A DNA stretch of 64,000 nucleotides from the NCBI GenBank assembly GCA_013791935.1, contig VMSV01000204.1, positions 13,415-77,414 of the forward strand, read 5' to 3'. The stretch is from Desulfobacteraceae bacterium. Lineage in GTDB: Bacteria; Desulfobacterota; Desulfobacteria; Desulfobacterales; UBA5616. Below, piece by piece: positions 12,111 through 58,968 of this stretch. How positions within the stretch are numbered: position 1 is the stretch's first letter; each line of letters opens with the position of its first letter. The notes under the pieces are model-generated. The model did no database searches. It saw only the letters and a list, made by a program, of their open reading frames with translations, and was not told the origin of the DNA. The position numbers and the translations under genes were made by a program.

Positions 12111-12148
12111 TGGGCAACCATCATGAAAAATGAAAAAGTGAAATCACC

Positions 12149-17339: not shown

Positions 17340-17384
17340 TGAAAGGCCGGAAAAATTTCGGCATCAGAAAGCATGTTTTCTTGA

Positions 17385-21809: not shown

Positions 21810-21896
21810 ACATCCGCGAACACAGACATCTTGACCCCGTACGGGGGAAGTGGTACTGCACATTTAACGATTCCCTATCCCTTGAAATGAGGCGCC

Positions 21897-23273: not shown

Positions 23274-23312
23274 TATGAGGGGTAATAAATCTTTACATTA
23301 AGGAGGCGTAAT

Positions 23313-23708
23313 TTGGCACCCGCAAAACTGGAACATTTATTTGATCAAAACCAGATGGATCGTATTTTTCCCGATTCCATTTCCGATCAATTTTTTGACG
23401 CCTTGTTCGGGGATTCCGAGGAAGGGGCCTATGACATTCGTCTGGCATTCAACCGGCAGGAGGGGAATAAGCTTGAGTTTCACTTTGAACTGGCAAGACG
23501 CCCGGAAAAGTGTCTGCGGTGCAGCCTCACTTATGGCCTGCCGGAAGTATTCACACGCCATCCGGTGATCAATTTAAAAGGTCTTACAGGAGAAATGGAC
23601 AAAATCATCCATGGAAAAGAAAAAATAGATCACTGGAAAATCGGCAAAACCATCGAGATAGATGCGGATCTTCACATCATCCCCTTTACCGTCTTTCTGA
23701 AAAATTGA
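23313..23708 (+). CDS. hypothetical protein (131 aa), TTG start, between the fumarase and aconitase genes
   Basis: AAGGAGG RBS 7 nt before TTG at 23313. Same strand and tight spacing (13 nt to the acnA start). No recognisable domain. Confidence 0.5.
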   Translation: MAPAKLEHLFDQNQMDRIFPDSISDQFFDALFGDSEEGAYDIRLAFNRQEGNKLEFHFELARRPEKCLRCSLTYGLPEVFTRHPVINLKGLTGEMDKIIHGKEKIDHWKIGKTIEIDADLHIIPFTVFLKN

Positions 23709-23720
23709 GCCGGGAGAACC

Positions 23721-26507
23721 ATGCAGACCTTCAAAGACAGTTTCAAAACCCTGACCCGCTTATCCGGGGCCCCGGGGGATAACCTTTATTTTGACATTCA
23801 CCGGCTGGAATCCGCTGGTTTTAAAAATATTTCCACCCTGCCCTTCAGCATCAAAATCCTTCTGGAAAATCTCCTGCGGCACGAAAACGGGGAAACCATC
23901 ACCGAAAACCACATCCGCCAAATGGCCGACTGGCAGAACAGCCGGTCGGAAAAAACGGAAATTCCCCTGATGCCCTCCCGAATCCTCTTGCAGGATTTCA
24001 CGGGCGTGCCGGCGGTGGCGGATATCGCCGCCATGCGGAGTGCCGCCAAAAGGCTCTATGGCGATCCCATGCGCGTGAACCTGCTGATCCCTTCGGAACT
24101 GGTCATCGATCATTCCGTTCAGGTGGATCACTACGGCTCCCGAGAGGCACTGGACCTCAATGTCGAAAAAGAATTCCAGCGAAACCATGAGCGGTATGCT
24201 TTTCTTCGGTGGGCCCACGGCAGCATTGAAAATTTCGCGGTGGTTCCCCCCGGCGCAGGCATCTGTCACCAGGTGAACCTGGAATATCTGGCCCGGGGAG
24301 TGTTCACCAAACCCGTAGACGGCGGGACCTTGGTGTTCCCCGATAGTCTTGTGGGTCTGGATTCCCATACCACCATGATCAACGGCATCGGCGTTCTGGG
24401 ATGGGGGGTCGGGGGCATTGAAGCCGAAGCGGTCATGCTGGGACGACCCTATTATTTCACCACCCCCGAAGTGGTGGGATTCAAACTCACCAGAGCACTT
24501 GCAGAAAACGTGACGGCCACGGACCTGGTTCTGGTCATCACCCAGATGCTTCGGGAAAAAGGGGTGGTGGGAAAGTTCGTGGAGTTTTTCGGGCCGGGAT
24601 TGGGCAGCCTTCATTTGGAGGATCGGGCCACCATCGCCAACATGGCCCCGGAATACGGGGCCACCATGGGGTTTTTTCCCGTGGATGACGTGACCCTCAA
24701 CTATTTAAGATTCACCGGGCGCGCAAAAGAGCAGATCGCTCTGATCGAACAATACTTCAAGGCCCAGGGACTTTACCGGACCCCGGAAACACCGGACCCC
24801 GACTATTCGGAAATCATGACCCTGGACATGGCCACAGTGTTGCCCTGCCTGGCCGGACCGAGCCGGCCCCAGGACCGGATTCTTCTTTCAAACATGGCCG
24901 AAACGTTTCTGGAAACGACCAAGGATGCCTGCGAAATCGGGCATCATTTTCTGGATGAAGACGAACCGGAAACCTTCTGGGAGGACGAAGGCGGTTCCCT
25001 CACGCCCGGGCCGGAAACCGCTCCCGAGGATTGCGTGACCCCTGAAAAAACCTTCGGGGTAACGGTTCTTCTTGAAAATCACAAACCCTTCAAGCTCTAT
25101 CACGGGTCCATTCTCATCGCCGCCATCACAAGCTGCACCAACACCTCCAACCCGCATGTGATGATCCAGGCCGGACTTCTGGCCAAAAAGGCGGTTGAAA
25201 AGGGCCTGAAAGTCAAACCCTGGGTGAAAACCAGCCTGGCGCCCGGATCCAAAGCGGTTCGGGACTATCTTGTGGATTCAGGCCTCATGCCGTATCTTGA
25301 GGAGCTGGGATTTCATCTGGTGGCCTTTGGTTGCACCACCTGCATCGGCAACAGCGGCCCCCTTGCGAAACCCATTGCAGCCGCAGTGACGGAACACAAC
25401 CTGGTGGCGGCTTCGGTGCTGAGCGGAAACCGGAATTTCCCGGGGCGGATTTCCCCCTTGACCCAGTCCAACTACCTGGCCTCCCCGCCCCTGGTGGTGG
25501 CCTATGCCCTGGCTGGCAGCGTGGGGTTCAACCTGAATGAAGACCACCTGGGGCACGATGAAAAAGGCCAACCGGTTTATTTAAAGGACCTCTGGCCTTC
25601 CAGGGAAGAAGTGGCACAAACCCTGGCCGCATGCGTCACCCCGGATCTGTATCAAAAGGCCTATCAGGATGTTTTTGAGGGATCCGCCCTGTGGAAAACC
25701 CTGGACACACCCCGGGGAGCCATGTTTCAATGGACGGATTCCTCGACCTATATCAAAGAACCCCCTTTTCTGGAGGACATCACCCGTGAGATTCCGGACC
25801 TGAAAGATATTCACGGAGCCAGGGTTCTGGCCCTTTTCGGGGATTCGGTCACCACAGACCACATCTCCCCTGCCGGAGCCATTCCCGAAGACAGCCCGGC
25901 GGCCCAGTACCTCAAGTCCCTGGGGGTTAAGACTGCGGACTTCAATTCCTACGGCTCCCGCCGGGGAAACCATGAAGTGATGATGCGGGGAACCTTCGGC
26001 AATATTCGTTTGAACAACCGGCTGGTTCCGGACATTGCAGGCGGTTGGACCCGGTACCTTCCGGAAGATCTGCAAATGCCCCTCTATGACGCCGCCATGA
26101 AATACAGGGCCAATGAAACGCCTTTGATTGTGTTGGCGGGAAAATACTACGGGTCCGGAAGCTCCAGGGACTGGGCCGCCAAGGGCACCCTGCTGCTGGG
26201 GATCAAGGCGGTTCTGGCGGAAAGTTTCGAGCGCATTCACCGGAGCAACCTGGTGTGCATGGGGGTGTTGCCCCTGGAATTTATGCCGGGGGAAAGCGCG
26301 CAAAGCCTGGGCCTGGACGGAACCGAAGTCTTTGATGTGGAAGGGATTGGAAAGGATCTGGCTCCCGGAAAAGTTCTTAAGGTTCGGGCCATGAAAACAG
26401 ACGGTTCCCTAAAGGAGTTTCAGGTGATTGCACGGCTGGACGGGCCCATTGAGGTGACCTATTACCGGAACGGCGGGATACTGCCCTACGTGCTAAGAAG
26501 TCTGTAA
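23721..26507 (+). CDS. acnA: aconitate hydratase A
   Basis: 928 aa with aconitase motifs: IAAITSCTNTSNP, FGCTTCIGNSG, VLSGNRNFPGR and the swivel-domain SGSSRDWAAKG. Confidence 0.9.
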   Translation: MQTFKDSFKTLTRLSGAPGDNLYFDIHRLESAGFKNISTLPFSIKILLENLLRHENGETITENHIRQMADWQNSRSEKTEIPLMPSRILLQDFTGVPAVADIAAMRSAAKRLYGDPMRVNLLIPSELVIDHSVQVDHYGSREALDLNVEKEFQRNHERYAFLRWAHGSIENFAVVPPGAGICHQVNLEYLARGVFTKPVDGGTLVFPDSLVGLDSHTTMINGIGVLGWGVGGIEAEAVMLGRPYYFTTPEVVGFKLTRALAENVTATDLVLVITQMLREKGVVGKFVEFFGPGLGSLHLEDRATIANMAPEYGATMGFFPVDDVTLNYLRFTGRAKEQIALIEQYFKAQGLYRTPETPDPDYSEIMTLDMATVLPCLAGPSRPQDRILLSNMAETFLETTKDACEIGHHFLDEDEPETFWEDEGGSLTPGPETAPEDCVTPEKTFGVTVLLENHKPFKLYHGSILIAAITSCTNTSNPHVMIQAGLLAKKAVEKGLKVKPWVKTSLAPGSKAVRDYLVDSGLMPYLEELGFHLVAFGCTTCIGNSGPLAKPIAAAVTEHNLVAASVLSGNRNFPGRISPLTQSNYLASPPLVVAYALAGSVGFNLNEDHLGHDEKGQPVYLKDLWPSREEVAQTLAACVTPDLYQKAYQDVFEGSALWKTLDTPRGAMFQWTDSSTYIKEPPFLEDITREIPDLKDIHGARVLALFGDSVTTDHISPAGAIPEDSPAAQYLKSLGVKTADFNSYGSRRGNHEVMMRGTFGNIRLNNRLVPDIAGGWTRYLPEDLQMPLYDAAMKYRANETPLIVLAGKYYGSGSSRDWAAKGTLLLGIKAVLAESFERIHRSNLVCMGVLPLEFMPGESAQSLGLDGTEVFDVEGIGKDLAPGKVLKVRAMKTDGSLKEFQVIARLDGPIEVTYYRNGGILPYVLRSL

Positions 26508-26520
26508 TTCCTTTAGTTGA

Positions 26521-28509
26521 TCAACCGTCCTTCAACGCCTGGCGTACCTTGACGGCCACATCATGGGTGGAGAAGGGTTTTTGAATAAATTGGACCCCTT
26601 CGTCCAGCACGCCGTGATGGGCGATGACATTGGCCGTGTATCCGGACATGAACAGGCGTTTCAGATTCGGGAAAAGGGACAACAGGGTTTTGGCCAGGTC
26701 CCGGCCGTTCATCTCGGGCATGACCACATCGGTCATGAGCAGGTGAATCTCACCGATGTGCTCACGAGCCATGCGGATGGCTTCCCCCGGCCTGTTCGCC
26801 GTGAGTACGGTATAGCCCAGCTTTTCGAGCATGATCCCAGTGATTCTCAGAATCGCCGGTTCATCCTCCACCAACAGGATGGTTTCACTTCCCTGCACAG
26901 TCGAACGGGTCGGGTCTTTCTTGCCCTCGGGTTTTGCAGCGACTTCGTGAATGGGCAGGTAAGTCTTGAACGTCGTGCCTTTTCCGGGTTCGCTGTACAC
27001 ATTGATGAACCCGTTGTTCTGCTTGATGATCCCATATACCGTGGCCAGGCCCAATCCCGTGCCTTTTCCGGGACCCTTGGTGGTGAAAAAAGGTTCGAAC
27101 AGATGGGCCACGATTTCTTTGTCCATGCCGCACCCGTTGTCGCTCACCGCCATCAGGATGAAGTCTCCGGGGACAAAACCGGCGTGGTCCGCGCAATAGG
27201 CTTCATCAAAGCTAACTTTTGCCGTCTCAATGGTGATCTTTCCCACATCCCCAATGGCATCCCGGGCGTTGACGCAGAGATTGGCCAGGATCTGATCGAT
27301 TTGCGACGGATCCATTCGTACCCACTCCACCCCTTTTCCCGGCAACCAGGCCAGGTCGATATCCTCCCCGAGAAGCCGCCGAAGCATCTTGAGCATGCCC
27401 TCAATGGTTTCGTTCAAGTCCAACACCTTGGGTGCAATGGTCTGTTTCCTGGCAAAAGCCAGGAGCTGCCGGACCACCTCCGTGGAACGCCGGGTGGCGT
27501 TTAAAATTTCCAGAAGATCATCATGAAGGGAATCGGATGGATTCACCTTTTCCAGGGCCAGTTCCGTATACCCCAGGATGACGCCGAGCATGTTGTTGAA
27601 ATCATGGGCCACGCCTCCGGCCAGCCGTCCCACGGATTCCATTTTCTGGGCCTGGTTCAGCTGGGCTTGCAGTTTTGCCCGTTCTTCTTCGGCGTGTTTT
27701 CGCTCGGTGATGTCCAGGGTGAAGCCTGCCAGGTACTGGGGGTTTTCCCCCGAGTGGATGGGAAATTTTATGGTGCTGTAGTGTCTTCCATCAAGTTCCT
27801 CTTCAATCTCAACTGTTTTTCCTTCGCGCAGGATCCGTTTGTCGTCCTCCACCATGGCCCTGGCAAGATCCGACGGGAACAGTTCATCCATGGATTTCCC
27901 CAGCAATTCATCCATGGGTTTGCCCAGCATGGCTTCGTAGTTGGCACTCAATCGGAGGGACCGGAGTTGATCATCCTTGAAGAAAACATAGATGGGGCTG
28001 TATTCCATGAATTGCCTGAATATTTCCTCACTCTCCTCCAGAGCCTCCTCGGCCCGTTTGCGCTCGGTAATGTCCTGAAGGGTTCCAACCACCATTTGAA
28101 GCTCAGGGTCAAACTCGGCCACCGAGTGAATGAACCGTATGGAGTTGTCCGAGGGCCGAAGGATTTTGAATTCAATGTCGTAGGGCGTCCCTTTTTCCAT
28201 GAGATTCTTTAATTCAGCGTTCAGGGACTGGCGGTATTCCTTCAGGGGCAGGGCTTGAACCTGTTCAATCGACCATTCGGTTCCTTCCAGGCCATAGACC
28301 CTGCGGGCCTGATCCGAGGCGGTCACCCTGCGAGTACGAAGGTCCAAGCGCCACGAACCGATTTTGGCGAGGGTTTCTGCCCGCTCAAGGTCCCGCTGGC
28401 TATCCCGCAAACGCTGAATGTTCTCGGTCAATTCCGTCATGGAGGCGTTTTCCTCCAAGTCCAGCAGGCGTTTGAGCTCATCAAGGGTCGGGTCTTGTTC
28501 TCGGGTCAT
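26521..28509 (-). CDS. PAS-domain hybrid sensor histidine kinase/response regulator (HK1 of the tandem array)
   Basis: Coiled coil + 2 PAS, then HisKA ([22 protein letters not shown]), HATPase_c (GxGxG: [18 protein letters not shown]) and a C-terminal REC (ILLVEDE...LLMTDVVMPEMNG). Confidence 0.85.
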   Translation of the reverse strand: MTREQDPTLDELKRLLDLEENASMTELTENIQRLRDSQRDLERAETLAKIGSWRLDLRTRRVTASDQARRVYGLEGTEWSIEQVQALPLKEYRQSLNAELKNLMEKGTPYDIEFKILRPSDNSIRFIHSVAEFDPELQMVVGTLQDITERKRAEEALEESEEIFRQFMEYSPIYVFFKDDQLRSLRLSANYEAMLGKPMDELLGKSMDELFPSDLARAMVEDDKRILREGKTVEIEEELDGRHYSTIKFPIHSGENPQYLAGFTLDITERKHAEEERAKLQAQLNQAQKMESVGRLAGGVAHDFNNMLGVILGYTELALEKVNPSDSLHDDLLEILNATRRSTEVVRQLLAFARKQTIAPKVLDLNETIEGMLKMLRRLLGEDIDLAWLPGKGVEWVRMDPSQIDQILANLCVNARDAIGDVGKITIETAKVSFDEAYCADHAGFVPGDFILMAVSDNGCGMDKEIVAHLFEPFFTTKGPGKGTGLGLATVYGIIKQNNGFINVYSEPGKGTTFKTYLPIHEVAAKPEGKKDPTRSTVQGSETILLVEDEPAILRITGIMLEKLGYTVLTANRPGEAIRMAREHIGEIHLLMTDVVMPEMNGRDLAKTLLSLFPNLKRLFMSGYTANVIAHHGVLDEGVQFIQKPFSTHDVAVKVRQALKDG

Positions 28510-28566
28510 GGCATCCTCGTTGTTTGTTCATTTCCAAATTCTTCAATCCGGCTGCATGCAACGGAT

Positions 28567-31098
28567 TTACGATGGTGGATCCGGGTTTTTGGTGTGGAAC
28601 AGGGTTTCTCTCACCTTCATGGCGATATCCTTTTTAGAGAAGGGTTTCTGAATAAAGTGCACCCCTGCATCCAGCACCCCGTGATGGGCGATGACGTTGG
28701 CCGTGTACCCGGACATGAACAGGACTTTGAGATCCGGATAAAAAAGCATCATTTCTTCAGCAAGATCCCGGCCGTTCATACCGGGCATGACCACATCCGT
28801 GATAAGCAGATGGATTTTTCCAGGGGGAATTTTAGCCAACCGTAAGGCTTCCTCCGGTGTCTTTGCCGTAAAAACGGTATAACCCAGATTTTCCAGCATG
28901 GTTTTGCCCAGGGCCAGGATGGCCCCCTCGTCTTCCACAATCAGGATATGTTCCCCTTGGCCCCGCGGGAGGATTGAGGTGCTCTCCAGTGGCATTGCAG
29001 CGCCTTCGCCCTGGTGCCGGGGCAGGTAGATTTTGAAGGTGGTTCCAATTTGCTGTTCACTGTAGACGTTGATGAATCCGTTGTTCTGTTTGACGATTCC
29101 ATACACCGTGGCCAGTCCCAGGCCGGTGCCTCCCCCCGGCTCCTTGGTGGTGAAAAAAGGCTCGAACAGATGGGCCAGCACCTCTTTGCCCATGCCGCAC
29201 CCTTTGTCGCTCACTGCCAGCAGAACATAGTCTCCGGGGACAAATCCGGCGTGATCTGCACAATACTCCTCATCAAAGCTCGCCTTGCCCGTCTCAATGG
29301 TGATCTTTCCCACATCTGCAATAGCATCCCGTGCGTTCACGCAGAGATTGGCCAAGATCTGATCCATCTGCGACGGGTCCATTCGTACCGGTCCCACCAC
29401 TTTGCCCGGCAACCAGGCCAGGTCGATATCTTCACCTATAAGACGCCTAAGCATCTTGAGCATTCCCTCCACGGTTTCATTCAAGTCCAGGATCTTGGGT
29501 GCAATGGTCTGCTTACGGGCAAAGGCCAGCAGCTGCCGGACAATCGCCGTTGAGCGGCTGGCAGCGTTGAGGATTTCCCGAAGATCTTTATGAAGGGGAT
29601 CGGAGGGGTTCACTTTGTCCATGGCCAATTCCGAATACCCCAGAATGACGCTGAGCATGTTGTTGAAATCGTGGGCCACCCCTCCCGCGAGCCGACCCAC
29701 GGATTCCATCTTCTGGGCCTGGACCAGCTGGGATTGCAGGATTTCCCGATCTTCTTCCGTTTGCTTCCGTTCCGTGATGTCTAAAAAACCAGCCAGGAAA
29801 TTGTCGCCTATTCGGCTGTGGGAAATCAAGACCGTACGGATCTCGCCGTTTTTGCAGGTGATCCGGTACTCGAAGGGTTCTATGCCCATTTTTTCCCCAG
29901 GACCTCGTTGCAAGGCGGCTTCCCAGGTTTCCAACACCCATCCCCGATAGCCGGGGTCCGGGTAGGCCAGTTGCCACCACTCGTTAAGGGTTGGTACTTC
30001 CTCACTTGAATAACCGAAGACTTTGGAAAAAAGGCGACTGGTGTTTACCAGAACGCCCTCCTTATTCACCAAGCACAGGGGGATCGGGGCTACTTCAAAG
30101 AGGTTCCGGAACAGTTCCTCGCTTTTTCCCAAGGCCAATTCAGCCTCTTTTCGATGCTTGATTTCTCTGAAAAGCTTCCGGTTCCAGACCCCCAGCCCGG
30201 AAAGGATCACCACAAACAAGGCCAGGACCTGCCAGAGCAGCCGGTAGTTAATCCCATGCTCATAGCGCACCGGAAGCCATTTTCGGTAAATCTCCGCATG
30301 CTCTTTTTCGGAAATGGAGTCCAACCCTTTCTGCAGAATTCCCGCCAGGATAGGCCAGTCGCTGCGTACCGCCATGGATTGGGCGTTTACGTACGGGGTT
30401 TCCCCGGCGATCTTGATATTGGCCATTTTGAGTTTTGCCATGGAATAGCTGACCACCAGCATATTATCAATGTAGGCAAAGACCTCCCCTCTTTGCAGCA
30501 GTTCAAGGCCTTCCTCAGCATTCTTTGCTTTCACCAGCCGGATTTCGGGAAAGTCTTTCGGAATCCAGTCGTTGACCGCGTAGCCATCCACAATGGCCAC
30601 ACGCTTTCCGGAAAGTTCCCTCATCTTGTCTATGTAGGTCACATCCGCCTGGGCGAAAATGGCGATGGGGATTTTCATGTAAGGCTTTGTGAAGAGCCAG
30701 AATTGGGTTCGCTCAGGGGTTACAGCCACGGAAGTAGTCATGTCGATTTCATGGCGCTGGAGCCGGGTGTAGGCCTCCTGCCAGCTCAAGCCTTTCACCC
30801 GCTCAAAGGCAACCCCCAGGCGATTCTCCAGGAGTTTCAGATAATCCCCGGCCATTCCGGAAGGTTCTCCTCGGGCATCCACAAATTCAATGGGCGGCCA
30901 GCCCGGGTCCTGAACCACCCGAATGACCGGGTGATCCCGCAACCAGGCTCGATCCTCCGCATCCAAAAGTTCCTCGCCATACAGGGGATTGCTGTCCAAA
31001 AAGAGGAGCATCGGAAGGAAAATCCATACGACCCAAAGCATCCCCCTGCTTTTTTCTTGCCCTTTTTTTGGGCTTGGATTTCTCGGGTTTCTTTTCAT
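28567..31098 (-). CDS. hybrid sensor histidine kinase with periplasmic solute-binding (SBP_bac_3-like) sensor domain, PAS, HisKA, HATPase, REC (HK2)
   Basis: Signal/TM, then a type-3 SBP fold, a TM helix and a PAS domain. The kinase+REC core is near-identical to HK1. Start set at MKRNPR (AGAGG RBS); the track ORF extends to 31185. Confidence 0.8.
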
Positions 31099-31162
31099 AA
31101 CCTCTTTCTGATGGACTTTTTCGAAACGATGAATCCTCCAAAACCGCTTTTCCCCAAGGGAG

Positions 31163-33343
31163 CTACTCCTGATCCAGGGCCTCACGAACCTTGGTGGCGA
31201 TATCTTGCATGGAAAAGGGCTTGGGAAGAAAACGCACCCCTTCGTCCAAGACGCCGTGATGGGCTATGGTGGTGGCCGTGTACCCGGACATGAACAGAAC
31301 CTTGATCTCCGGGTAAAGCACGATCAATTGTTCGGCCAGATCCAACCCGTTCATCCCGGGCATGATCACATCCGTGACGAGCAGTTGAATTTCGTCTGTA
31401 TGTTCCCTGGCCAGGGTCAGGGCATCTTCCGGGCTGTTGGCCCCCAGCACGGTGTACCCGAGGTTTTCCAGCATGGTTTTGCCCAGGGTCAAGATGGCCT
31501 TTTCGTCTTCCACCATCAGAACGGTCTCCCCCCGGCCCCGTGAAATGGGCTGGGAACTGTCCACGGAGATCATTCCTGCTTCTCCTTCGTGGCGGGGCAG
31601 ATAGATCTCGAAGGTGGTTCCTTTGCCCGGTTCACTATCCACGTGAATGAACCCGTTGTTCTGCTTTATGATGCCGTACACCGTGGCCAAGCCCAGGCCC
31701 GTGCCTTCTCCCGCCCTTTTGGTGGTGAAAAAGGGCTCGAACAGGTTGGCCAGGATTTCCTTGTCCATTCCGCATCCGTTGTCGTTTACGGTCAACAGGG
31801 CGAAATCACCCGGAGCACAGTCGATATTGTCGGCACAATAGACCTCATCAAAGCTTGCCCGGCCGGTTTCAATGGTGATCTTGCCCACGCCGGCAATGGC
31901 ATCCCGTGCATTCACACAGAGATTGGCCAGGATTTGATCGATTTGGGACGGGTCCATGCGGATCGGCCACAGGCCCGTTTCCGGCAGCCAGGCCAGATCA
32001 ATGTCCTCTCCGATGAGCCTACGGAGCATCTTAAGCATGCCCTCGATGGTTTCGTTCAGGTCCAGAACCTCGGGAACAATGGTCTGTTTCCGGGCAAAGG
32101 CCAGCAGCTGCCGGACAATGGCCGTGGAGCGCTCGGCGGCATTCAGGATTTCACGAAGATCCCCATGAAGGGAATCGGCCGGGTCCATCTTTTCCATGGC
32201 CAGCTCCCCATAACCGATGATCACGCTGAGCATGTTGTTGAAATCATGGGCCACGCCTCCGGCCAGGCGACCCACGGACTCCATTTTCTGGGCCTGGTGA
32301 AACTGACCTTCCAGGAGCTTGTGTTCGGTAATATCCTGGATCAGGCCGTCGTAGCTCACGATCACCCCGTACCCGTCCCGGTGGGGCACCGTGGTGTTTC
32401 TCACCCAGCGGATCTCCTCGTCTTTTCGCAGAATTCGATGTTCCAGGGGTTGGGTCTCTTCACCGGCTGCGGCCCGCTTGGCATGTTCAATGACCCGGTC
32501 ACGGTCCTCGGGCACGACGATTCCCAGCCACAGGAAGGGGTCCTGGGCAAATTCGTTTTCATGATACCCGGTAACGGCCAGGCACCCAGGCCCATGGGCG
32601 GTGGACACGGCCGTGCCGTTTTCCATGTGCACCGTATAGACATAATCCGTGATGGCATGGGTAATTCGCTTGTAACGTTCCTCGCTTTCCCGCAGGGCCA
32701 TCTCCATGCGCTTGTTCTCGGCGATGTCGGACATCACCACTCGGCACACAAGGGTGCCGTCTTCATGCCGGGCGGCAATGGCGTCCAGCCGGACCCAGAG
32801 CGGGAGGTGCCCCGTTTTCACCATCCGCAGCCTGCACACCTGGGGCTCACCGGTTTCAAAAAGCGCCTTGCGATGCCGGTAGTAGATGTCCTGGTCTTCC
32901 TTCAGGATGAACCGGACAATCGGCTGCTTGGCCAGCACACTCCGGGGCACATTCAGTTGATTGGAAGCGGTGAGGTTGGCCTCCAGGATCAGGCCTTGCT
33001 CGCTCAGGGTGACATACCCCACGGGCGCAAGGTCGTAGAGATCGAAATACCTGGCCCGGGAAGCGTCCAGTTCTTCCCGGGCACGGCGCAGCTCCTCGTT
33101 CTGCATGGCCAGCTCGATCTGGTGAACCTCCAAGTCGTGGACCATTTGGCGGATTTCCTCCGGGGAGAGGGTCGTGGGGTCCGCCCCGGTCTTATCTGCT
33201 TTTGGACGGGCTTGGGAAAGTTCTTCCGGTTCAGCGGCCTTATGGGCCTTGATATTTTTGCTGTTCATGGAAGCCTCTTTGGTCATGTTAAAAACCATTT
33301 GTCCCGGACATCGGGCCTTGGTTTTTCCAGCCATGAATGTCAT
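31163..33343 (-). CDS. PAS-domain hybrid sensor histidine kinase/response regulator (HK3)
   Basis: Coiled coil, 2-3 PAS, then the same HisKA/HATPase/REC core. ATGA overlap with HK4. An alternative start at MNSKNIK (33268) has a better RBS (AAAGAGG). Confidence 0.8.
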   Translation of the reverse strand: MTFMAGKTKARCPGQMVFNMTKEASMNSKNIKAHKAAEPEELSQARPKADKTGADPTTLSPEEIRQMVHDLEVHQIELAMQNEELRRAREELDASRARYFDLYDLAPVGYVTLSEQGLILEANLTASNQLNVPRSVLAKQPIVRFILKEDQDIYYRHRKALFETGEPQVCRLRMVKTGHLPLWVRLDAIAARHEDGTLVCRVVMSDIAENKRMEMALRESEERYKRITHAITDYVYTVHMENGTAVSTAHGPGCLAVTGYHENEFAQDPFLWLGIVVPEDRDRVIEHAKRAAAGEETQPLEHRILRKDEEIRWVRNTTVPHRDGYGVIVSYDGLIQDITEHKLLEGQFHQAQKMESVGRLAGGVAHDFNNMLSVIIGYGELAMEKMDPADSLHGDLREILNAAERSTAIVRQLLAFARKQTIVPEVLDLNETIEGMLKMLRRLIGEDIDLAWLPETGLWPIRMDPSQIDQILANLCVNARDAIAGVGKITIETGRASFDEVYCADNIDCAPGDFALLTVNDNGCGMDKEILANLFEPFFTTKRAGEGTGLGLATVYGIIKQNNGFIHVDSEPGKGTTFEIYLPRHEGEAGMISVDSSQPISRGRGETVLMVEDEKAILTLGKTMLENLGYTVLGANSPEDALTLAREHTDEIQLLVTDVIMPGMNGLDLAEQLIVLYPEIKVLFMSGYTATTIAHHGVLDEGVRFLPKPFSMQDIATKVREALDQE

Positions 33344-36300
33344 GGATCAACATAGGTTTTTCTCCCTTCATCCAGGGCCTCACGCACTTTGACGGCGACA
33401 CTTTTCATGGAGAACGGTTTTTGAAGAAAACGCACCCCCTCGTCCAGCACACCGTGATGGGCGATGACATTGGCCGTGTACCCGGACATGAAGAGAACTT
33501 GGATTTCCGGATGAAGCAGGAGCAGTTGTTCGGCCAGATCCCGGCCGTTCATTCCGGGCATGACCACATCGGTGATGAGCAGGTGAATTCGGTCTCCAAC
33601 CTCCCGGGCCAGCGCCATGGCCTCATCCGGTGAGTTTGCCGACAGCACGGTGTAACCCAGTTTTTCCAGCATGGTTTTGATCAAAAGCAGGATGACTTCC
33701 TCGTCTTCCACGATGAGAACCGTCTCCCCTTGGCCCCTCGGGATGGAGGATGCGCTTTCCTCGGGAATGGCCACGACTTTTCCCTCGTGGCGGGTCAGGT
33801 AGATTCTGAAGACGGACCCTTTTTCCGGCTCACTGTAGACATTGATGAACCCGTTGTTCTGCTTGACGATGCCGTACACCGTGGCCAAACCCAAACCCGT
33901 GCCTTCTCCCACGCCCTTGGTGGTGAAAAAAGGCTCGAAAATGCAATCCAGGGTTGCTTTGTCCATGCCGCATCCGCTGTCGCTCACCACCAGCAGGATG
34001 AAATCCCCGGGAGCAAAGCCCGGGTGGCTGGCGCAGTATTCCTGATCCAGGGTCACCCGGTCCGTTTCAATGGTGATTTTTCCAACGCCGGCGATGGCGT
34101 CCCGGGCGTTTACGCAAAGGTTGACCAGAATCTGATCGATCTGGGAAGGATCCATCCTCACCGGGCACACACCGGGTTCCGGAAGCCATGCCAGGTCGAT
34201 GTCCTCGCCGATAACCCGCCGGAGCATTTTGAGCATGCCCTCCACGGTCTCGTTCAGGTCCAGCGACCGGGGGGCGATGGTCTGCTTCCGGGCAAAGGCC
34301 AGCAACTGGCGAACCACTTCCGCGGACCGTTTGGTGGCGTTGAGAATTTCCTGAAGATCCCCTTGAATGGAATCGGACGGGGCCACTTTGTCCATGGCCA
34401 GTTCCGCATACCCCAGAATCACGCCGAGCATATTGTTGAAATCGTGGGCCACGCCCCCGGCGAGCCTGCCCACGGATTCCATCCTTTGGGCTTGGTTCAG
34501 CTGGGCCTCCAGGGCCTTGCGCTCGCTCAAGTCCACACCGATACAGGTCAGATCCAAGAGGTTCCCGTGGGCATCCAGGGAGAGGGCGTTGGACCAGACC
34601 ACATGGTGCCGCTTACCCTTTCGGGACAGGATTTCATTCTCATGGATGGAAAAGCCTGAAAGATTTTCATTGCTCACGGTTTCGAAAAATACCCTTCGGA
34701 TATCTTCTTGGATTTCAGGGGGAATGAACCTCTCGAACCAGTCTTGACCCAGGACTTCTTCTTCGGTCCACCCGGTCAATTGCAGAAAGTGCCGGTTGGC
34801 AAAGGTGATTTGACCTCTGGGGTTCAGGCTGATGCCAATCTGGGGGATGTTGACGAGGATGTTCCGCCATTTCCGTTCGGACCCTATCAACGCATTCTCC
34901 GCTCTTTTTTGCTCCACCACCGGCCAAATCACATCCGCCAGGAAAGCCACGGTTTCGGCGTCCTTTTCCGTATAGTCACAAGGTTTGTTGCCCAACCCCA
35001 GAATCGCCACCACCTTGTCATTTTTCATCACGGGAACCACCAGTTCCCGGATCACCTCGGCATGGCCGTCGGGCATCCCCTTTCTGTTGGGCAGGGATGC
35101 GTAGTCGTTGTGAAGGATTGGCTTGCCCGTGCCCACGCAATCTGCCCAGACCCCGGCCTGGTCTATGTCGTAATGGGTTCCCCGGCCCTGGGCCTGGCAG
35201 AACTCTTGTTGGGTCCGGGTGGACCATTGCTGGAGGGAAAGGGTCCTCTGGTCGGCATCCACAAAGTGATAGAACCCGATGGGGCTGTCCACCAAGGCCC
35301 CGATTTCATCCAGGGCTTTGGTTAATAAATCATCCAGGGAATGCGTTGAAGCGTATTCCACCAGGGTAAGACGCACCTGGTTCAACCGGTTCTGCCAGCG
35401 TTCTTCGGTCCGGTCCCGGAACACCAGCACCACGCCGGTGATCTCGCCAAGGTTGTTGCGGATGGGGGCTGCGGAGTCGGCGATGGGACGTTCTTCCCCG
35501 TTTTTGGCAATGAGCAGGGTGTGGTTGGCCAGACCCACCACCAGGCCATGGCGCAGGACTTTGGCCACCGGGCTTTCTGAAATTTCGCGGGTCTCTTCAC
35601 TGATGATGTGAAAAACCTCTTCCAGGGGTTTGCCCCAGGCCTCCTCATGGTTCCAGCCGGTGAGGGCCTCGGCCACGGGGTTGAGCAATTCCACCCGGCC
35701 CTGAACATCGGTGGCGATCACCGCATCCCCGATGCCCTTGAGGGTGACACTGTGTCGTTCATTGCTGGCTCGCAGCCTGGCTTCACTGTCGAAAAGCTCT
35801 TTGTAGTGGATTTTTCTGCCTCGTTCCCGAACCGCCAGCCAGATCGCTCCGATCACAGCCATGAAGCCCAACCACAGCATAAGCATCAGGATGGAACGGA
35901 AACGCCAAACCGCATAAACCTCCTCCTCATCCTCCTTGGCCACCATGAACCAATCTGAATCGGGTACGGGCAGGATCACCGCCAAGACCTGGACACCCCG
36001 GTAGTCTGTGCCTCGCACCATCCCCTTTTCACCCTGCACGGTCATGACCGCGGGCAAATCCGTCCGGGTGAGGGGAATGCGCAGTTTGAGGGCCGCACCC
36101 GTCTGATGGCGCAGGTCATTGAGAAAAAGCACATGATCGCCATCCCGCCGGATCAGCAGCGTTTCGGCGGTTTTACTCAGCGTGGGCCAGGTCTGAATCA
36201 AAGGATAGAGGAATTTCGACGCATTGAAGATCATGATGACCGCGCCCATGGCATGGGGGCGATACCCGTCCCGGGACAGAATCGGAGCAATCACACTGAT

Positions 36301-36792
36301 ATGGGGCACCGGGTTTTGCTCTTCCATATGCAATTGGGTTAAGGCAGGCTTGCGGCTTTGCAGCGCCTCGGCCAAGCCTTCCGCGTACCCGCTGTTAGGC
36401 TCCATGTTACCGGTCATGCTCATCAGAATCCTGCCCTCGGGACTGGTGAGCAGGATGTCCGTGTAATGTTGGTTGATCATGAGGGTGCGAAAAAAGGCCT
36501 GGATGTCCTTGGCATTCTCTTGGCTCGGATCGGCCATGAAGCGGGTGATCCCGTCGGCTAAAAACGGGTTTCCTGCTACCAAGGCACCGTCCCCCAGCCG
36601 TTCCTTTCGCCAGGCATCAATCTGGTCCACCTTGAGGCTCCCCATGGAAACCAGTCTGTCTTCAGCCGCATGTTGGAGAACCCTCTCCTGGCTTCGGTAA
36701 AATACTGCGCCTCCGGCCAATAGGGCCAGAAGTGCCGCTCCCAGAACCATCGTCATCCACCGAGGGAATGCGCTCCCTTCACTCTTCATCAT
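33340..36792 (-). CDS. hybrid sensor histidine kinase with periplasmic Cache-like sensor, PAS-GAF-PAS, HisKA, HATPase, REC (HK4)
   Basis: Two TM helices flank a periplasmic domain of about 280 aa. The cytoplasmic part carries PAS/GAF/PAS and the conserved kinase-REC core. 1150 aa. Confidence 0.8.
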   Translation of the reverse strand: MMKSEGSAFPRWMTMVLGAALLALLAGGAVFYRSQERVLQHAAEDRLVSMGSLKVDQIDAWRKERLGDGALVAGNPFLADGITRFMADPSQENAKDIQAFFRTLMINQHYTDILLTSPEGRILMSMTGNMEPNSGYAEGLAEALQSRKPALTQLHMEEQNPVPHISVIAPILSRDGYRPHAMGAVIMIFNASKFLYPLIQTWPTLSKTAETLLIRRDGDHVLFLNDLRHQTGAALKLRIPLTRTDLPAVMTVQGEKGMVRGTDYRGVQVLAVILPVPDSDWFMVAKEDEEEVYAVWRFRSILMLMLWLGFMAVIGAIWLAVRERGRKIHYKELFDSEARLRASNERHSVTLKGIGDAVIATDVQGRVELLNPVAEALTGWNHEEAWGKPLEEVFHIISEETREISESPVAKVLRHGLVVGLANHTLLIAKNGEERPIADSAAPIRNNLGEITGVVLVFRDRTEERWQNRLNQVRLTLVEYASTHSLDDLLTKALDEIGALVDSPIGFYHFVDADQRTLSLQQWSTRTQQEFCQAQGRGTHYDIDQAGVWADCVGTGKPILHNDYASLPNRKGMPDGHAEVIRELVVPVMKNDKVVAILGLGNKPCDYTEKDAETVAFLADVIWPVVEQKRAENALIGSERKWRNILVNIPQIGISLNPRGQITFANRHFLQLTGWTEEEVLGQDWFERFIPPEIQEDIRRVFFETVSNENLSGFSIHENEILSRKGKRHHVVWSNALSLDAHGNLLDLTCIGVDLSERKALEAQLNQAQRMESVGRLAGGVAHDFNNMLGVILGYAELAMDKVAPSDSIQGDLQEILNATKRSAEVVRQLLAFARKQTIAPRSLDLNETVEGMLKMLRRVIGEDIDLAWLPEPGVCPVRMDPSQIDQILVNLCVNARDAIAGVGKITIETDRVTLDQEYCASHPGFAPGDFILLVVSDSGCGMDKATLDCIFEPFFTTKGVGEGTGLGLATVYGIVKQNNGFINVYSEPEKGSVFRIYLTRHEGKVVAIPEESASSIPRGQGETVLIVEDEEVILLLIKTMLEKLGYTVLSANSPDEAMALAREVGDRIHLLITDVVMPGMNGRDLAEQLLLLHPEIQVLFMSGYTANVIAHHGVLDEGVRFLQKPFSMKSVAVKVREALDEGRKTYVDP

Positions 36793-36885
36793 GGGGTCCC
36801 CTGTCGTTTATACGGGGGTCTTTCCAAAACCTTCCCGCGGGTTTGCCCAAGCGAAATCGTTCTGTGGGTCTTTTTCACAAACATG

Positions 36886-39564
36886 TCACACTCCCCTTCT
36901 TTCTTCCTTCCCAAGGCCGATCACCTCTTGGATTTTGGCGGCAAGCTCCTGAATGGTAAATGGTTTTTGAATTAAATGCACTCCTGGATCCATCACACCG
37001 TGATGGGCGATGGCATCGGCCGTGTACCCGGACATAAAAAGGACTTTGATCTTCGGGAAAAGGGACGTAAGCTGCCCGGATAGATCCGGTCCGTTCATTT
37101 CCGGCATGATGACATCGGTGATGAGCAGATCAATGGTGCCGGAGCAAGCCTCGGCAAGAATCAAGGCTTCTCCCGGAGCATTGGCCGTCATCACGGTGTA
37201 GCCGAGCTTTTCCAGCATGATCGCCGTCATCTTCAGAATCGCCGCCTCGTCCTCCACCACCAAAACGGTCTCCCCCTTGCCCTGCCGGACGACCGAAGGG
37301 ATTTTGGCAGGAATCATCCCGGTTTCGCCCTGGTAGCGAGGCAGATGGATCTTTACCAAGGTCCCTTTGCCCGGTTCACTGGAAACATGGATGAATCCAT
37401 GGTTCTGCTTGACGATGCCGTACACCGTGGCCAGGCCCAAGCCGGTGCCCTCTCCCACCTCCTTGGTGGTGAAAAAAGGCTCGAATAGATTGTCCATAAT
37501 CTCTTTTTCCATGCCGTGACCATTGTCCCTCACCGTCAGCACGACATAGTCCCCCGGGGAAGCTCCCGAATGCTCGGAACAGTATTCTTCATCCAAACTC
37601 ACCCGGCCGGTTTCGATGGTGATCTTGCCCACCCCGGTGATGGCGTCCCGGGCGTTGATGCACAGATTGGCCAAAATCTGGTCGATTTGCGACGGATCCA
37701 TCCTCACCGGCCAGACTTTCGCGCCGGGCAGCCAGACCAGGTCGATATCCTCATCGATGAGTCGCCGAAGCATCTTGAGCATCCCTTCCACCGTCTCGTT
37801 CAGGTCGAGTACTCGGGGAGATATGGTCTGTTTGCGGGCAAAGGCCAGCAATTGCCGGACCACCTCCGTGGACCGTTTGGCTGCGTTTAAAATTTCTCCA
37901 AGAGCATCATGAACGGGATCATCCGGAGCCACCCTGTCCATGGCCAGCTCCGCATAACCGTTGATGACGCTGAGCATGTTGTTGAAATCGTGTGCCACGC
38001 CGCCTGCGAGCCTTCCCACGGACTCCATCTTCCGGGCCTGCTGAACCTCGGCTTCCAGCCGCAGTTGCCCCGTAATGTCCCGTTTGACGGCAACAAAGCT
38101 GATGATCTTGCCCCCGGAATCCCGAACCGGAGAAATCGTGGTCTCATCCGTGTAGAGGGTTCCGTTCTTCCGTTTGTTGACCATGCGTCCTTGCCATGTT
38201 TCACCGGATTTGATGGTGGTCCAGAGATCCTCGTAAAAAACCCTGTCCTGTTTCCCGCTTTTCAGGAAACGCGGGTTTTTTCCCAGAATTTCTTCTTCGG
38301 CATATCCAGTGGCCCGCTCAAAGGCGGGGTTGACATACTGGATGGCGCCGTGGCCGTCGGTGGTAAAAATGATATCGCCAGCCTGCTCAATGGCGGCCAT
38401 CATCCGTTCCCGCTCCATGGAGGCTTGTTTTTGTTCGGTGATGTCGCTGAAAACCCCCAACACGCCTACAGTATTCCCGTCTTTGTCTCGAATCGGTGTT
38501 TTAATCGTATAGGCCCAGGCAGTCCTGCCGCTTGTCACGTATTGCTCCTCAAGGCTCTCCGTTTTGCCGGAGGTCATGACCCGAAAATCGTCGGCCCGGT
38601 ATTTTTCGGCCAGCTCTCGGGTGAAGAGGTCATAGTCGGTCTTTCCGGCGATTTCCTCCTGCCTGATGCCCAGATCTCGGACAAAGTTCTCGTTGCAGGA
38701 CAGGTAGACCGACTGCCGGTCTTTTGCGAAAATCGCCTGTGGAAGGCTTTCAACCAGGGTGCGGTATTTTCCTTCGCTCGCGCGCAAGGCATCCATCACC
38801 TGTTTGCGTTCGGTGATGTCATGGGCCACTCCGCGAACGATGGGTTCTTCGGCTTCCTTGGAGCGCAGGGTGGTATGGTATTCCCAGATGAGTTTTTTGC
38901 CCGACCTGGATTGAACGGCAAGCAGGCCCTTGACCTCGCCTTGGGTTTCCACCGTTTTGAGGTATTCATCAAACGCACGGGTGGTTTCCGGCATTAGGAT
39001 ATCCCGAAGATTCATCTGCAGCAGGGTGTCCCTGTCAAAACCTAAAACGGTCGCCGCCCATGGATTCACCGAAAGAATGCGGCCTTTGAGATCGTGTGTG
39101 CAGATGAGGTCCCGGCTGTTTTCCACCAGGTCCCGGTATCGGTCTTCGCTCTCGCGCAAGGCCTCCTCGGCTTTCTTGCGGCCGGTGATGTCGCTGATGA
39201 TGTGCACTGCGCCGGAATACTGTCCGGCTGCGTCAAGGATGAGATCTACCGTAACCTGGAACCAGCTCTCGTCGGCTTTCAACTCCATGCTCTCGCGATG
39301 CAGGCTTATTTCTGCCCGCTTCAGGGGGCATTCGGGGATGGGTCGGGCCGTATGGTGTAAGATTTCCCAGCAGTGCCGGCCGATCAAATCCGGAAATGAA
39401 TCCTGGAACATTCGCTTTGCCGTTTTGTTGGCCTGCAGGATGCGCTGGTCCTTGTCGAGAATCCATATGGCGTCATTGGTGGCGTCAAAGGTCGTCCGCC
39501 AGTGACGCAATTCCTCTTCCCGGTTGTCCACGGCCGAAATGCCCGTATTTTCAAAATCCGTCAT
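36886..39564 (-). CDS. multi-PAS hybrid sensor histidine kinase/response regulator (HK5)
   Basis: At least 4 PAS/PAC repeats, then HisKA ([28 protein letters not shown]), HATPase and REC. Start set at MTDFENTG (GAGGTG RBS). The track ORF begins at a TTG inside the repeat element. Confidence 0.8.
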   Translation of the reverse strand: MTDFENTGISAVDNREEELRHWRTTFDATNDAIWILDKDQRILQANKTAKRMFQDSFPDLIGRHCWEILHHTARPIPECPLKRAEISLHRESMELKADESWFQVTVDLILDAAGQYSGAVHIISDITGRKKAEEALRESEDRYRDLVENSRDLICTHDLKGRILSVNPWAATVLGFDRDTLLQMNLRDILMPETTRAFDEYLKTVETQGEVKGLLAVQSRSGKKLIWEYHTTLRSKEAEEPIVRGVAHDITERKQVMDALRASEGKYRTLVESLPQAIFAKDRQSVYLSCNENFVRDLGIRQEEIAGKTDYDLFTRELAEKYRADDFRVMTSGKTESLEEQYVTSGRTAWAYTIKTPIRDKDGNTVGVLGVFSDITEQKQASMERERMMAAIEQAGDIIFTTDGHGAIQYVNPAFERATGYAEEEILGKNPRFLKSGKQDRVFYEDLWTTIKSGETWQGRMVNKRKNGTLYTDETTISPVRDSGGKIISFVAVKRDITGQLRLEAEVQQARKMESVGRLAGGVAHDFNNMLSVINGYAELAMDRVAPDDPVHDALGEILNAAKRSTEVVRQLLAFARKQTISPRVLDLNETVEGMLKMLRRLIDEDIDLVWLPGAKVWPVRMDPSQIDQILANLCINARDAITGVGKITIETGRVSLDEEYCSEHSGASPGDYVVLTVRDNGHGMEKEIMDNLFEPFFTTKEVGEGTGLGLATVYGIVKQNHGFIHVSSEPGKGTLVKIHLPRYQGETGMIPAKIPSVVRQGKGETVLVVEDEAAILKMTAIMLEKLGYTVMTANAPGEALILAEACSGTIDLLITDVIMPEMNGPDLSGQLTSLFPKIKVLFMSGYTADAIAHHGVMDPGVHLIQKPFTIQELAAKIQEVIGLGKEERRGV

Positions 39565-39590
39565 AAGCACCTCTATTTTTTTGATAGTGT

Positions 39591-39723
39591 CCATCCAGAA
39601 ACGAGAAAATTTGTTCAAGTTCAAGGCAGGTAAAAATTTTAACCACAGGAATACTCGACGTATTTTGAGGATTAAAATTTTTGCCTAACACAGAAATTGG
39701 GCAAATTGGCCGTTTCTGGATGG
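39591..39723 (-). repeat. MITE-like ~130-bp structured repeat, copy 2, with 13-bp terminal inverted repeats CCATCCAGAAACG
   Basis: Reverse complement is about 90% identical to 7446-7571. Flanked by CCATCCAGAAACG ... CGTTTCTGGATGG. Ends 27 nt upstream of the HK5 start on the minus strand. Confidence 0.6.
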
Positions 39724-40000
39724 GTACTATATAGAAAGGACCGAATTGAACATGTCTCAAACCCTATGGTGCTCAACCCGCAACGGCTTGCTTCCTTTAG
39801 CGATATGCAGTCCCACTTGGCGGGACAGTGGCTTATAGATACTGGATCAATTCCGGGATGACGCTTGGAGGCAATGTCAACCTATTATTCAACTAAAAGC
39901 CTGGAAAAATCAAGATTCGATTGCGTATTTCCTGAGGTATTGGCAATTCTTTCGGGAAAAGATCAAGGGGTGGATATTTTTTCAGGGGAATGGTTTTGCC

Positions 40001-40036
40001 AAAAAAAAATCAACCGGCCAATTGGCCGGTTGATTT
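40001..40036 (-). terminator. rho-independent terminator (minus strand): perfect 26-bp palindrome ATCAACCGGCCAATTGGCCGGTTGAT followed by a T9 run on the minus strand
   Basis: A9 run at 40001-40009 on the plus strand is a T9 run on the minus strand directly 3' of the GC-rich hairpin. Lies downstream of the FG-GAP gene. Confidence 0.6.
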
Positions 40037-40373
40037 CGGAGAGGAGAAAAAGATGAAGATTTTTTTGGTTTCGCTATGGTGAAATGCAATTCGATTGCCA
40101 AAGTTATTTTTTTGATAATCTTTTTTAAATTTTGAGGTCTATCTGTTTATTATTCAGCAGGTTAAAATTTATAAAATTATTATTTTCAGCCAATTGAATG
40201 GTTTCGCCAGTGCAGGTGGGCAAGGTTTTGTTCACCATATTGAACCCTGAAAATGACGTCATTTGATAAAAAATACTGATATTTAACAATATTTTGCATT
40301 AAATCGCAGAGTTCAAAATTTTGAACCCCGATCATAATTTTGTACACTGGTTTTCGCACCTTCAAATTAGGCA

Positions 40374-58692: not shown

Positions 58693-58708
58693 TGGCACGG
58701 GGGTTGCT
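58693..58708 (+). promoter_or_regulatory. sigma-54 promoter: TGGCAC-GGGGG-TTGCT (-24/-12)
   Basis: Exact match to the TGGCAC-N5-TTGC consensus, 72 nt upstream of the ATG at 58780. Downstream of the sigma-54 activator gene. GTGAAAT-N11-ATTTCAC inverted repeats lie 250-390 nt upstream. Confidence 0.6.
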
Positions 58709-58779: not shown

Positions 58780-58968
58780 ATGTCCAATAAACTCAGCCAA
58801 AGATTGAAAAGCAGCATTCACCTTACCTGTTATTCATGCAAGCATAAGGAAGCGAGCCATGCCTGCCAGTTTGAATGGGACGGCGTATGCTATCAGCTCT
58901 GCCTTTGTAACGAATGCGCTTCCATGGGAGAAAAACAGCTTTATTCGGATTTCCTGTGTAATTTATAA
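58780..58968 (+). CDS. small cysteine-rich hypothetical protein (62 aa, 8 Cys)
   Basis: GAAAGGAACGAATC-ATG RBS. The Cys pattern CxxC...C...C...CxCxxC...C suggests a metal-binding fold. Placed directly behind a sigma-54 promoter. Confidence 0.5.
   Translation: MSNKLSQRLKSSIHLTCYSCKHKEASHACQFEWDGVCYQLCLCNECASMGEKQLYSDFLCNL

Follow-up and report, generated by a model that had tools for sequence, protein, structure and literature searches.

Five tandem paralogous hybrid histidine kinases with differing sensors on a common kinase-receiver core in a Desulfobacteraceae bacterium

Five hybrid kinase genes in one array

In a 64,000-nucleotide stretch of DNA from a Desulfobacteraceae bacterium (hereafter the window; positions 13,415 to 77,414 of the forward strand of contig VMSV01000204.1, assembly GCA_013791935.1) we studied an array of genes for hybrid histidine kinases. 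The listing of open reading frames (ORFs) of this 64-kb window contained five consecutive minus-strand ORFs within 26521-39624, here named HK1 to HK5, and they were recovered where a preliminary description of the sequence had placed five genes on the same strand. Pfam detected HisKA, HATPase_c and Response_reg domains at the C terminus of all five proteins. This core of about 381-388 aa is preceded in each protein by a sensor region of its own, as the preliminary description had indicated with its list of cytoplasmic PAS, SBP_bac_3, Cache-like plus GAF, and multi-PAS sensors, which the Pfam and transmembrane (TM) scans bore out.

The first gene of the array, HK5 (36886-39564), encodes 892 aa with four PAS domains in front of its core (36886-38052). 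HK4 (33340-36792, 1150 aa) consists of a TM segment, a periplasmic dCache-like domain, a second TM segment, a PAS, a GAF_2 and a further PAS domain, followed by the core (33340-34506). HK3 (31163-33343) encodes up to 726 aa, with a pair of PAS domains ahead of the core (31163-32308), and HK2 (28567-31098, 843 aa) has a signal or TM segment, a periplasmic SBP_bac_3 domain of the Venus-flytrap type, a TM segment, a PAS domain and the core (28567-29733). The last gene, HK1 (26521-28509, 662 aa), combines an N-terminal coiled coil and two PAS domains with its core (26521-27666). In a hydropathy scan HK2 showed a single clear membrane segment, located behind its SBP_bac_3 domain, and HK4 showed two, one on either side of its N-terminal domain; HK1, HK3 and HK5 appear cytoplasmic. 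The N-terminal hydrophobic segment of HK2 was read from the sequence, and the dCache_1 match of HK4 scored 26 bits, which is below the Pfam cutoff of 45. As the membrane segments are placed around the sensor domains, HK2 and HK4 are expected to sense in the periplasm. Between paralogues the sensor regions have generic PAS similarity only (22-37% identity).

Several gene starts had to be chosen among alternatives. The longest ORF of HK2 (28567-31185) would give 872 aa, and the ATG at 31098, which is preceded by the Shine-Dalgarno sequence GAAAGAGG, gives 843 aa. HK5 can be read from an upstream TTG (36886-39624, 912 aa) or from the ATG at 39564 (892 aa); we placed its start at the ATG because its orthologue R5, in a related metagenome-assembled genome (MAG) described below, begins at the matching ATG. 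The gene sizes given earlier consequently stand for four genes (662, 843, 726 and 1150 aa), and the 912 aa given for the fifth hold only from the TTG. The NCBI call for HK3 (P0002) is a protein of 553 aa that starts from an internal ATG, and the orthologue R3 has been called likewise. This shorter form drops a well-scoring PAS domain (HK3 aa 99-209), and the longer ORFs of HK3 and R3 both begin at an ATG that overlaps the TGA of the preceding gene (ATGA), so the public annotation of HK3 is probably truncated. At its N terminus HK3 has about 77 additional low-complexity residues in comparison to R3 (9713-11662 of the related locus). The overlap of the HK4 stop and the HK3 start lies at 33340-33343 and is kept in the related MAG. 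It is one of two ATGA-coupled junctions that had been reported; the second was not found, the remaining gaps in the array being 93, 64 and 57 nt.

By domain and motif criteria the five proteins are hybrid histidine kinases with predicted phosphotransfer activity. HisKA scored over the Pfam cutoff in 5/5 proteins with an invariant H-box AHDFNN. HATPase_c scored 67-82 bits, and the N, G1, F and G2 boxes were intact in all five (NLC(V/I)NARDA, a DxGx-led motif and GTGLGL). Response_reg scored 59-69 bits, and the acidic pair, the phospho-accepting Asp, the Ser and the Lys were present in every receiver (VEDE, TDV(V/I)MP, MSGY and (Q/P)KPF); in the alignment all five receivers carry FMSGY. Similarity among the paralogues starts directly after the D(I/L/V)(T/S) motif at the C terminus of the last PAS domain. 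The distance from this motif to the phospho-His is 36, 36, 29, 29 and 29 residues in HK1 to HK5, and the two lengths are exactly one heptad apart. Heptad periodicity is an established property of the linkers between PAS domains and kinases. The one-heptad difference together with the point at which similarity sets in agrees with a conserved transmission helix of the coiled-coil type and with a junction at which swaps are tolerated.

Divergence of the cores and turnover of the array

The five cores had been described as 85-90% identical in DNA over about 1 kb, and this figure could not be reproduced. DNA identity between the array genes was 72.6-77.7% by BLASTN (about 1.1 kb) and 70-76% when the cores were aligned by codons, and at the protein level the cores were 65.7-73.5% identical, with the HK5 core as the most divergent (65.7-67.7% to the other four). 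Only in short stretches of 90 nt, at the H-box and a few further motifs, did DNA identity rise to 84-89%, and the longest exact nucleotide match for any gene pair was 20-39 nt. The conservation is unevenly distributed, with a mean pairwise identity of 79% for the DHp domain (74-85% between individual paralogues), 76% for the CA domain, 30% for the CA-REC linker and 64% for the receiver (REC). The numbers of synonymous substitutions per site (dS, by the Nei-Gojobori method) between cores were 0.78-1.2, and the ratio of non-synonymous to synonymous substitutions (dN/dS) was 0.15-0.26, values that point to old duplications and to purifying selection on the copies.

The age of the duplications was further bounded by the related MAG (GCA_018896885.1, locus L082), in which the same gene order and the same flanks enclose four kinases. 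One flank has a radical-SAM, a metallo-beta-lactamase and an FG-GAP gene, and the opposite flank has the aconitase gene, a 131-aa ORF, the fumarase gene and a BcrAD/DUF2229 gene. The four kinases are 1:1 orthologues of array members, with core protein identities of 93.0% for HK5-R5, 92.5% for HK4-R4, 86.6% for HK3-R3 and 94.5% for HK1-R2 (86.9-95.1% in DNA), and each orthologue pair had 100% bootstrap. Paralogue pairs in either genome were 65-75% identical in core protein sequence. As the orthologues are 86.6-94.5% identical and the paralogues 65-75%, the duplications are older than the split of the two genomes, and the cores have not evolved in concert since.

The two arrays differ in a few places, and the comparison is a natural record of array turnover with one gene indel, one PAS indel and one possible micro-conversion. 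HK2 and one spacer (window about 28523-31173) are present here and absent from the array of the related MAG. R2 has one PAS domain more than HK1 (about 348 nt; 11662-12883 of the related locus), and the BLAST segments that border this indel share 28 nt of the window (about 27684-27711), which hints at recombination between neighbouring PAS repeats. In sliding 90-nt windows every core was nearest to its orthologue and not to its neighbours, except for one window in R3. This patch of about 60-90 nt (R3 core nt about 450-540, corresponding to about 10980-11070 of the related locus and about 31770-31860 in HK3) is 88-92% identical to HK1 and R2, with an exact run of 44 nt shared with HK1, against only 68% for HK3. 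Micro gene conversion is one candidate explanation, rapid local divergence of HK3 another.

A patch of this kind looks like the work of gene conversion, and one alternative is that ongoing conversion or unequal recombination between the copies keeps the cores alike. The gain or loss of HK2 also lends something to this explanation, since it shows that the array does rearrange. The array cores are moreover 66-73.5% identical to each other, versus 54-68% to the cores of proteins with homologous sensors (see below). We nevertheless regard concerted evolution as distinctly unlikely, because in both genomes orthologues (87-95%) exceed paralogues (65-75%), with a single 90-nt window as the exception, because dS is 0.8-1.2, and because exact matches of 20-39 nt at about 25% divergence form a poor substrate for homologous recombination; homogenisation, if there was any, was ancient and is not current. 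Recent gene conversion as a current process was rejected on the dS values, the longest exact matches and the sliding windows of orthologues versus paralogues. The earlier picture of near-identical kilobase repeats prone to gene conversion is accordingly not upheld by dS values of this size, exact matches within the window of at most 39 nt and orthologues that are closer than paralogues.

The preliminary description had also warned of assembly collapse. An independent contig (k141_346614 of ENA ERZ27247124) matched window positions 16521-32642 with 16 substitutions in 16,122 nt (99.90% identity), which also indicates that closely related strains are present in public data. The source is a MAG and this contig stops inside HK3, so mis-assembly of repeats had to be considered as an origin of the array or of its copy number. 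The contig ends at window position 32642, however, which is in the unique sensor region of HK3 and not in the repeated core. The HK1 protein (P0004) is identical in NCBI, JGI and ENA records (NCBI source name 'MAG: Desulfobacteraceae bacterium'); an exact-sequence look-up with HK4 returned no identical protein on record. With identical proteins from the NCBI, JGI and ENA assemblies, a separate MAG that shares gene order and flanks, and a divergence of about 25% with no exact match longer than 39 nt, which is far under assembler k-mer sizes, mis-assembly is hardly credible. The repeats of the array are too diverged to endanger the assembly, and the collapse that had been feared did not materialise.

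Relatives of the core and the histories of sensors and cores

A search with the HK2 core gave at least 7,985 proteins at E ≤ 1e-50 among 8,000 candidates scored, and the best 120 matches were all 65-75% identical. Among matches with a source name, these include Desulfobacteraceae, Desulfobulbus, Desulfobacula, Desulfotignum, Acidobacteria and others. A scan of GTDB species representatives with HK4 found relatives in Desulfobacterota, Nitrospirota, Acidobacteriota, Chloroflexota, Planctomycetota, Hydrogenedentota and more, with 61-69% identity in the best local segments, which spanned essentially the core alone. HK1 to HK5 are members of the CckA-like PAS-HisKA-HATPase-REC family, which is very large and frequent among Desulfobacterota and other anaerobes, and the strong conservation of the core is a property of the whole family and nothing special to the array.

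Some of the complete architectures are widespread as well. The full HK4 architecture occurs also in Pelobacter and in Desulfobulbales, Desulfobacterales and Anaerolineae MAGs at 42-54% full-length identity (54% for Pelobacter), and the full HK2 architecture in Syntrophobacter, Riflebacteria and other MAGs at 55-60%. Proteins from other taxa with the HK2 or HK4 architecture had 45-55% identity in the sensor. Their cores were 54-68% identical to those of HK2 or HK4 and equally near to the other array cores, and HK2 and HK4 fell together with the cores of proteins that share their sensors, apart from all array members, in 4/100 and 2/100 bootstrap replicates, respectively. As the cores of the sensor homologues are no nearer to HK2 or HK4 than to the other array members, sensors and cores have different histories. 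The proposal that different sensors are carried on a common kinase-receiver module was in this way supported, with 54-68% identity for the cores of the sensor homologues versus 65.7-73.5% within the array. For HK2 and HK4 this discordance supports domain shuffling at the PAS-DHp junction, as judged from sequence comparison, with ancient homogenisation of the cores as the less likely origin.

Taken together, we read the locus as a long-standing tandem cluster in which five paralogous orphan hybrid kinases arose by lineage-specific expansion and one kinase-receiver module became combined with unrelated sensors joined at the PAS-DHp coiled-coil linker, and we give this reading a probability of roughly 0.7. 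Several observations weigh against it. The best outside matches of HK1 (74.3% identity) are level with its nearest neighbour HK2 (73.5%), and as outside sequences are as near to HK1 as its neighbours, some members could have been transferred or relocated. The clade of the five cores had a bootstrap of 5% in a 74-core tree and of 12% in a 92-core tree, with 26% for HK2-HK5 and 83-89% for HK3+HK4, so that monophyly of the five is weakly supported. The trees were made by neighbour-joining on a biased sample of matches, and HK2, present here and absent from the relative, may have been gained here or lost there. The earlier expectation that a phylogeny should find the array cores nearer to each other than to kinases elsewhere came out borderline: the cores do group in the point-estimate tree, but with the bootstrap values of 5-12% and with outside sequences that equal the neighbours of HK1.

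These observations would suit an independent assembly of the array, with kinases separately acquired or relocated from a widespread and slowly evolving family. The size of that family, whose members retain 65-75% identity between orders and phyla, fits such an origin, as do the outside matches of HK1, the low bootstrap of an exclusive array clade, the full-length occurrence of the HK2 and HK4 architectures in distant taxa, and the presence of HK2 as an indel between close relatives. We consider it unlikely nonetheless, because in the expanded point-estimate tree of 92 cores the nine array cores (the five and their four orthologues) formed a clade (bootstrap 12%) and HK3+HK4 reached 83% (83-89% over both trees), HK2 and HK4 joined the cores of their sensor homologues in only 4/100 and 2/100 replicates, and the five genes lie on the same strand, tightly packed and with a conserved ATGA overlap. 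Lineage-specific expansion of one module remains the reading that we prefer.

Clusters of such kinases are found elsewhere, though with fewer members. In 22/80 loci from other genomes at least two such cores lay within about 20 kb, and three or more cores of the same subfamily within ±10 kb were found in 0/80 comparison loci, which puts five at the high end. A separate locus of an uncultured Desulfobacteraceae MAG (CAIVVZ010000509.1, locus L023, 4000-24561) has six same-strand HisKA-HATPase-REC cores within 21 kb, of which one is of the array subfamily (68% identical to the HK2 core) and the others are 32-37% identical, so mixed-family kinase arrays exist too.

Alm, Huang & Arkin (2006, PMC1630713) described lineage-specific expansions of histidine kinases with shuffled sensors and orphan status, which dominate in those delta-proteobacterial sulfate and metal reducers that are rich in kinases, and noted that hybrid kinases are particularly liable to expand in this way. 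The array resembles the cases described there in its common kinase domain, its differing sensors with or without TM segments, its orphans without a co-transcribed regulator and its sulfate-reducer-type genome. It differs in that the expansions of that study (Desulfovibrio, Geobacter) are dispersed genome-wide, whereas the five kinases here, all of one subfamily, make up a single same-strand array that is shared by two MAGs. The array is thus an example of a known evolutionary mode, unusually large at five members and not new in kind, and a literature search on tandem hybrid-kinase arrays in Desulfobacter-type bacteria found nothing specific. There is little new biology in it; it is a clean and well-bounded case of how kinase-rich anaerobes widen their sensing with one module and varied sensors.

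Predicted signalling, similar systems and neighbouring genes

Based on the intact motifs and the FMSGY receivers, the array most likely encodes phosphorelays of which the first two steps take place within each protein. HK2 would sense a periplasmic ligand via SBP_bac_3, HK4 a periplasmic ligand via its Cache-like domain together with a cytoplasmic GAF/PAS signal, and HK1, HK3 and HK5 would respond to cytoplasmic PAS signals. The signal would then travel along the helical linker of 29 or 36 residues and lead to autophosphorylation on the His of AHDFNN, followed by transfer to the Asp of the protein's own C-terminal receiver. From this receiver, which is of the intermediary type with the CckA 'FxSGY' motif, the phosphoryl group is predicted to pass to a ChpT-like or Hpt phosphotransferase and from there to a response regulator, both presumably encoded elsewhere in the genome.

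The likeness to CckA was also seen in structure and family searches. The best PDB match of the core was the catalytic core of Caulobacter CckA (5IDJ, E 6e-59, core residues 3-241), and CckA equivalogs were the top NCBIfam matches with 394-438 and 333-351 bits (NF046020 / NF046026) at a cutoff of 1000. The structural match together with scores below the cutoff makes the core CckA-like, but not CckA, and CckA orthology was rejected on the scores of 333-438 bits. Shared with CckA are the order of PAS, HisKA, HATPase_c and C-terminal receiver without an Hpt domain, the H-box GGVAHDFNN(M/L)L, and the match to 5IDJ over the whole DHp-CA region; the array differs in its other sensors, in its five tandem copies instead of one essential gene and in its Desulfobacteraceae-type host. 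An FxSGY ('FATGUY') motif sets CckA-type intermediary receivers apart from the receivers of terminal response regulators and has been tied tentatively to phosphotransferase engagement (Bruderlin et al. 2023, PMC9981736), and the FMSGY of the array receivers matches this motif.

HK2 alone is similar to BvgS and EvgS, with SBP_bac_3, TM segment, cytoplasmic PAS, coiled-coil linker, kinase and receiver in the same order, but it has a single SBP_bac_3 domain, no C-terminal Hpt and a CckA-type kinase core. Identification of HK2 as EvgS was rejected, as the NCBIfam EvgS model gave 107 bits at a cutoff of 1995 and neither a tandem Venus-flytrap domain nor an Hpt domain was present. PAS/LOV-FixL chimeras such as YF1 (PDB 4GCZ, 8A3U) were also among the PDB matches of the core. 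In chimeras of this type sensors are exchanged at the junction between the PAS C-terminal DIT motif and the coiled coil, and linker length counts in heptad steps. The onset of similarity in the array lies at the same junction, with linkers of 29 or 36 residues. The chimeras were built in the laboratory on a FixL-type core and lack a receiver, whereas the swaps proposed for the array would be natural ones.

Related hybrid kinases can stay functionally interconnected, as described under the term 'phylogenetic promiscuity' for networks of the GacS/RetS/LadS type (Ortet et al. 2021, PMC8175716). The array kinases are likewise related hybrid kinases with different inputs that could converge on one output, as the preliminary description proposed, or cross-phosphorylate, and the parallel is a functional speculation; the Gac kinases differ in that they have Hpt domains and lie at scattered places in the genome, whereas the array is tandem. 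With 74-85% identity in DHp the five kinases might heterodimerise or cross-phosphorylate. Going further, the array may be a natural 'plug-in' hub. A lineage-specific kinase-receiver cassette would have served time and again, through re-use or through ancient homogenisation, as the output of old and widespread sensors (SBP-PAS, Cache-PAS-GAF-PAS and multi-PAS) exchanged at the heptad-registered PAS-DHp junction, and the co-transcribed kinases would form heterodimers or cross-phosphorylate and feed their inputs into one ChpT-like phosphotransferase. We regard this extension as tentative and on the whole rather doubtful. Should all five kinases prove to act on one partner, the array would offer a convenient system for the study of signal integration and of sensor swapping at the PAS-DHp junction.

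A partner was not found nearby. Pfam and ORF scans of the array and the adjoining DNA (23.7-44 kb) detected no Hpt and no stand-alone response regulator, and the intergenic gaps within and around the array gave nothing credible as a hidden small Hpt or receiver gene, in line with the earlier statement that no cognate Hpt or response regulator lies inside the array. No ChpT, CtrA or CpdR gene was found among the ORFs of the window outside 1-12 kb.

Expression of the array may start in the AT-rich intergenic region of 810 nt upstream of HK5 (39565-40373, minus strand), which is the likely promoter region, and co-transcription of the five genes from this leader is plausible. A terminator scan gave no minus-strand terminator-like site in any gap between the array genes. 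Inside the leader the upstream FG-GAP gene is followed by a strong intrinsic terminator with a 14-bp stem (40006-40037, minus strand), and about 45 nt ahead of this terminator there is a sigma-54-like motif, TGGCAATCGAATTGCA (40085-40100, minus strand). The two may give rise to a short transcript, or may be no more than the FG-GAP terminator plus a chance motif. An Rfam search of the leader gave only sub-threshold matches to terminator-containing sRNA models, which overlapped the terminator, and none above the gathering score.

The nearest regulator with a receiver is an NtrC-type activator (REC-Sigma54_activat-HTH_8) at 56938-58302. It is convergent with a sixth kinase, HK6 (59055-61208, minus strand), at a distance of 752 nt, which agrees with the preliminary description of a sixth family member next to a sigma-54 activator, although its core is only 45-49% identical to the array cores. 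HK6 lies outside the array and encodes 717 aa with an N-terminal hydrophobic or TM region, two PAS domains and a core at 59055-60200; its distance from the PAS motif to the phospho-His is 36 residues. The gap between activator and HK6 contains a textbook sigma-54 promoter motif, TGGCACGGGGGTTGCT, at 58693-58708 (plus strand). It points at an ORF of 62 aa (58780-58968, plus strand) that is cysteine-rich with several CxxC-like pairs and convergent with HK6. The sigma-54 pattern occurred twice in the window versus 0.41 expected, and 7/100 shuffles reached two occurrences.

On the other side of the array, an ORF of 131 aa without a Pfam match (23313-23708, plus strand) lies between fumarase (21897-23273) and aconitase (23721-26507), and it is found at the same place in both the related MAG and the ENA contig. 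Just upstream of fumarase and aconitase, in an arrangement that is kept in the relative, a protein of 1474 aa is encoded (17385-21809, plus strand) in which BcrAD_BadFG ATPase domains are fused to DUF2229, and which resembles the activator of 2-hydroxyacyl-CoA dehydratase or benzoyl-CoA reductase.

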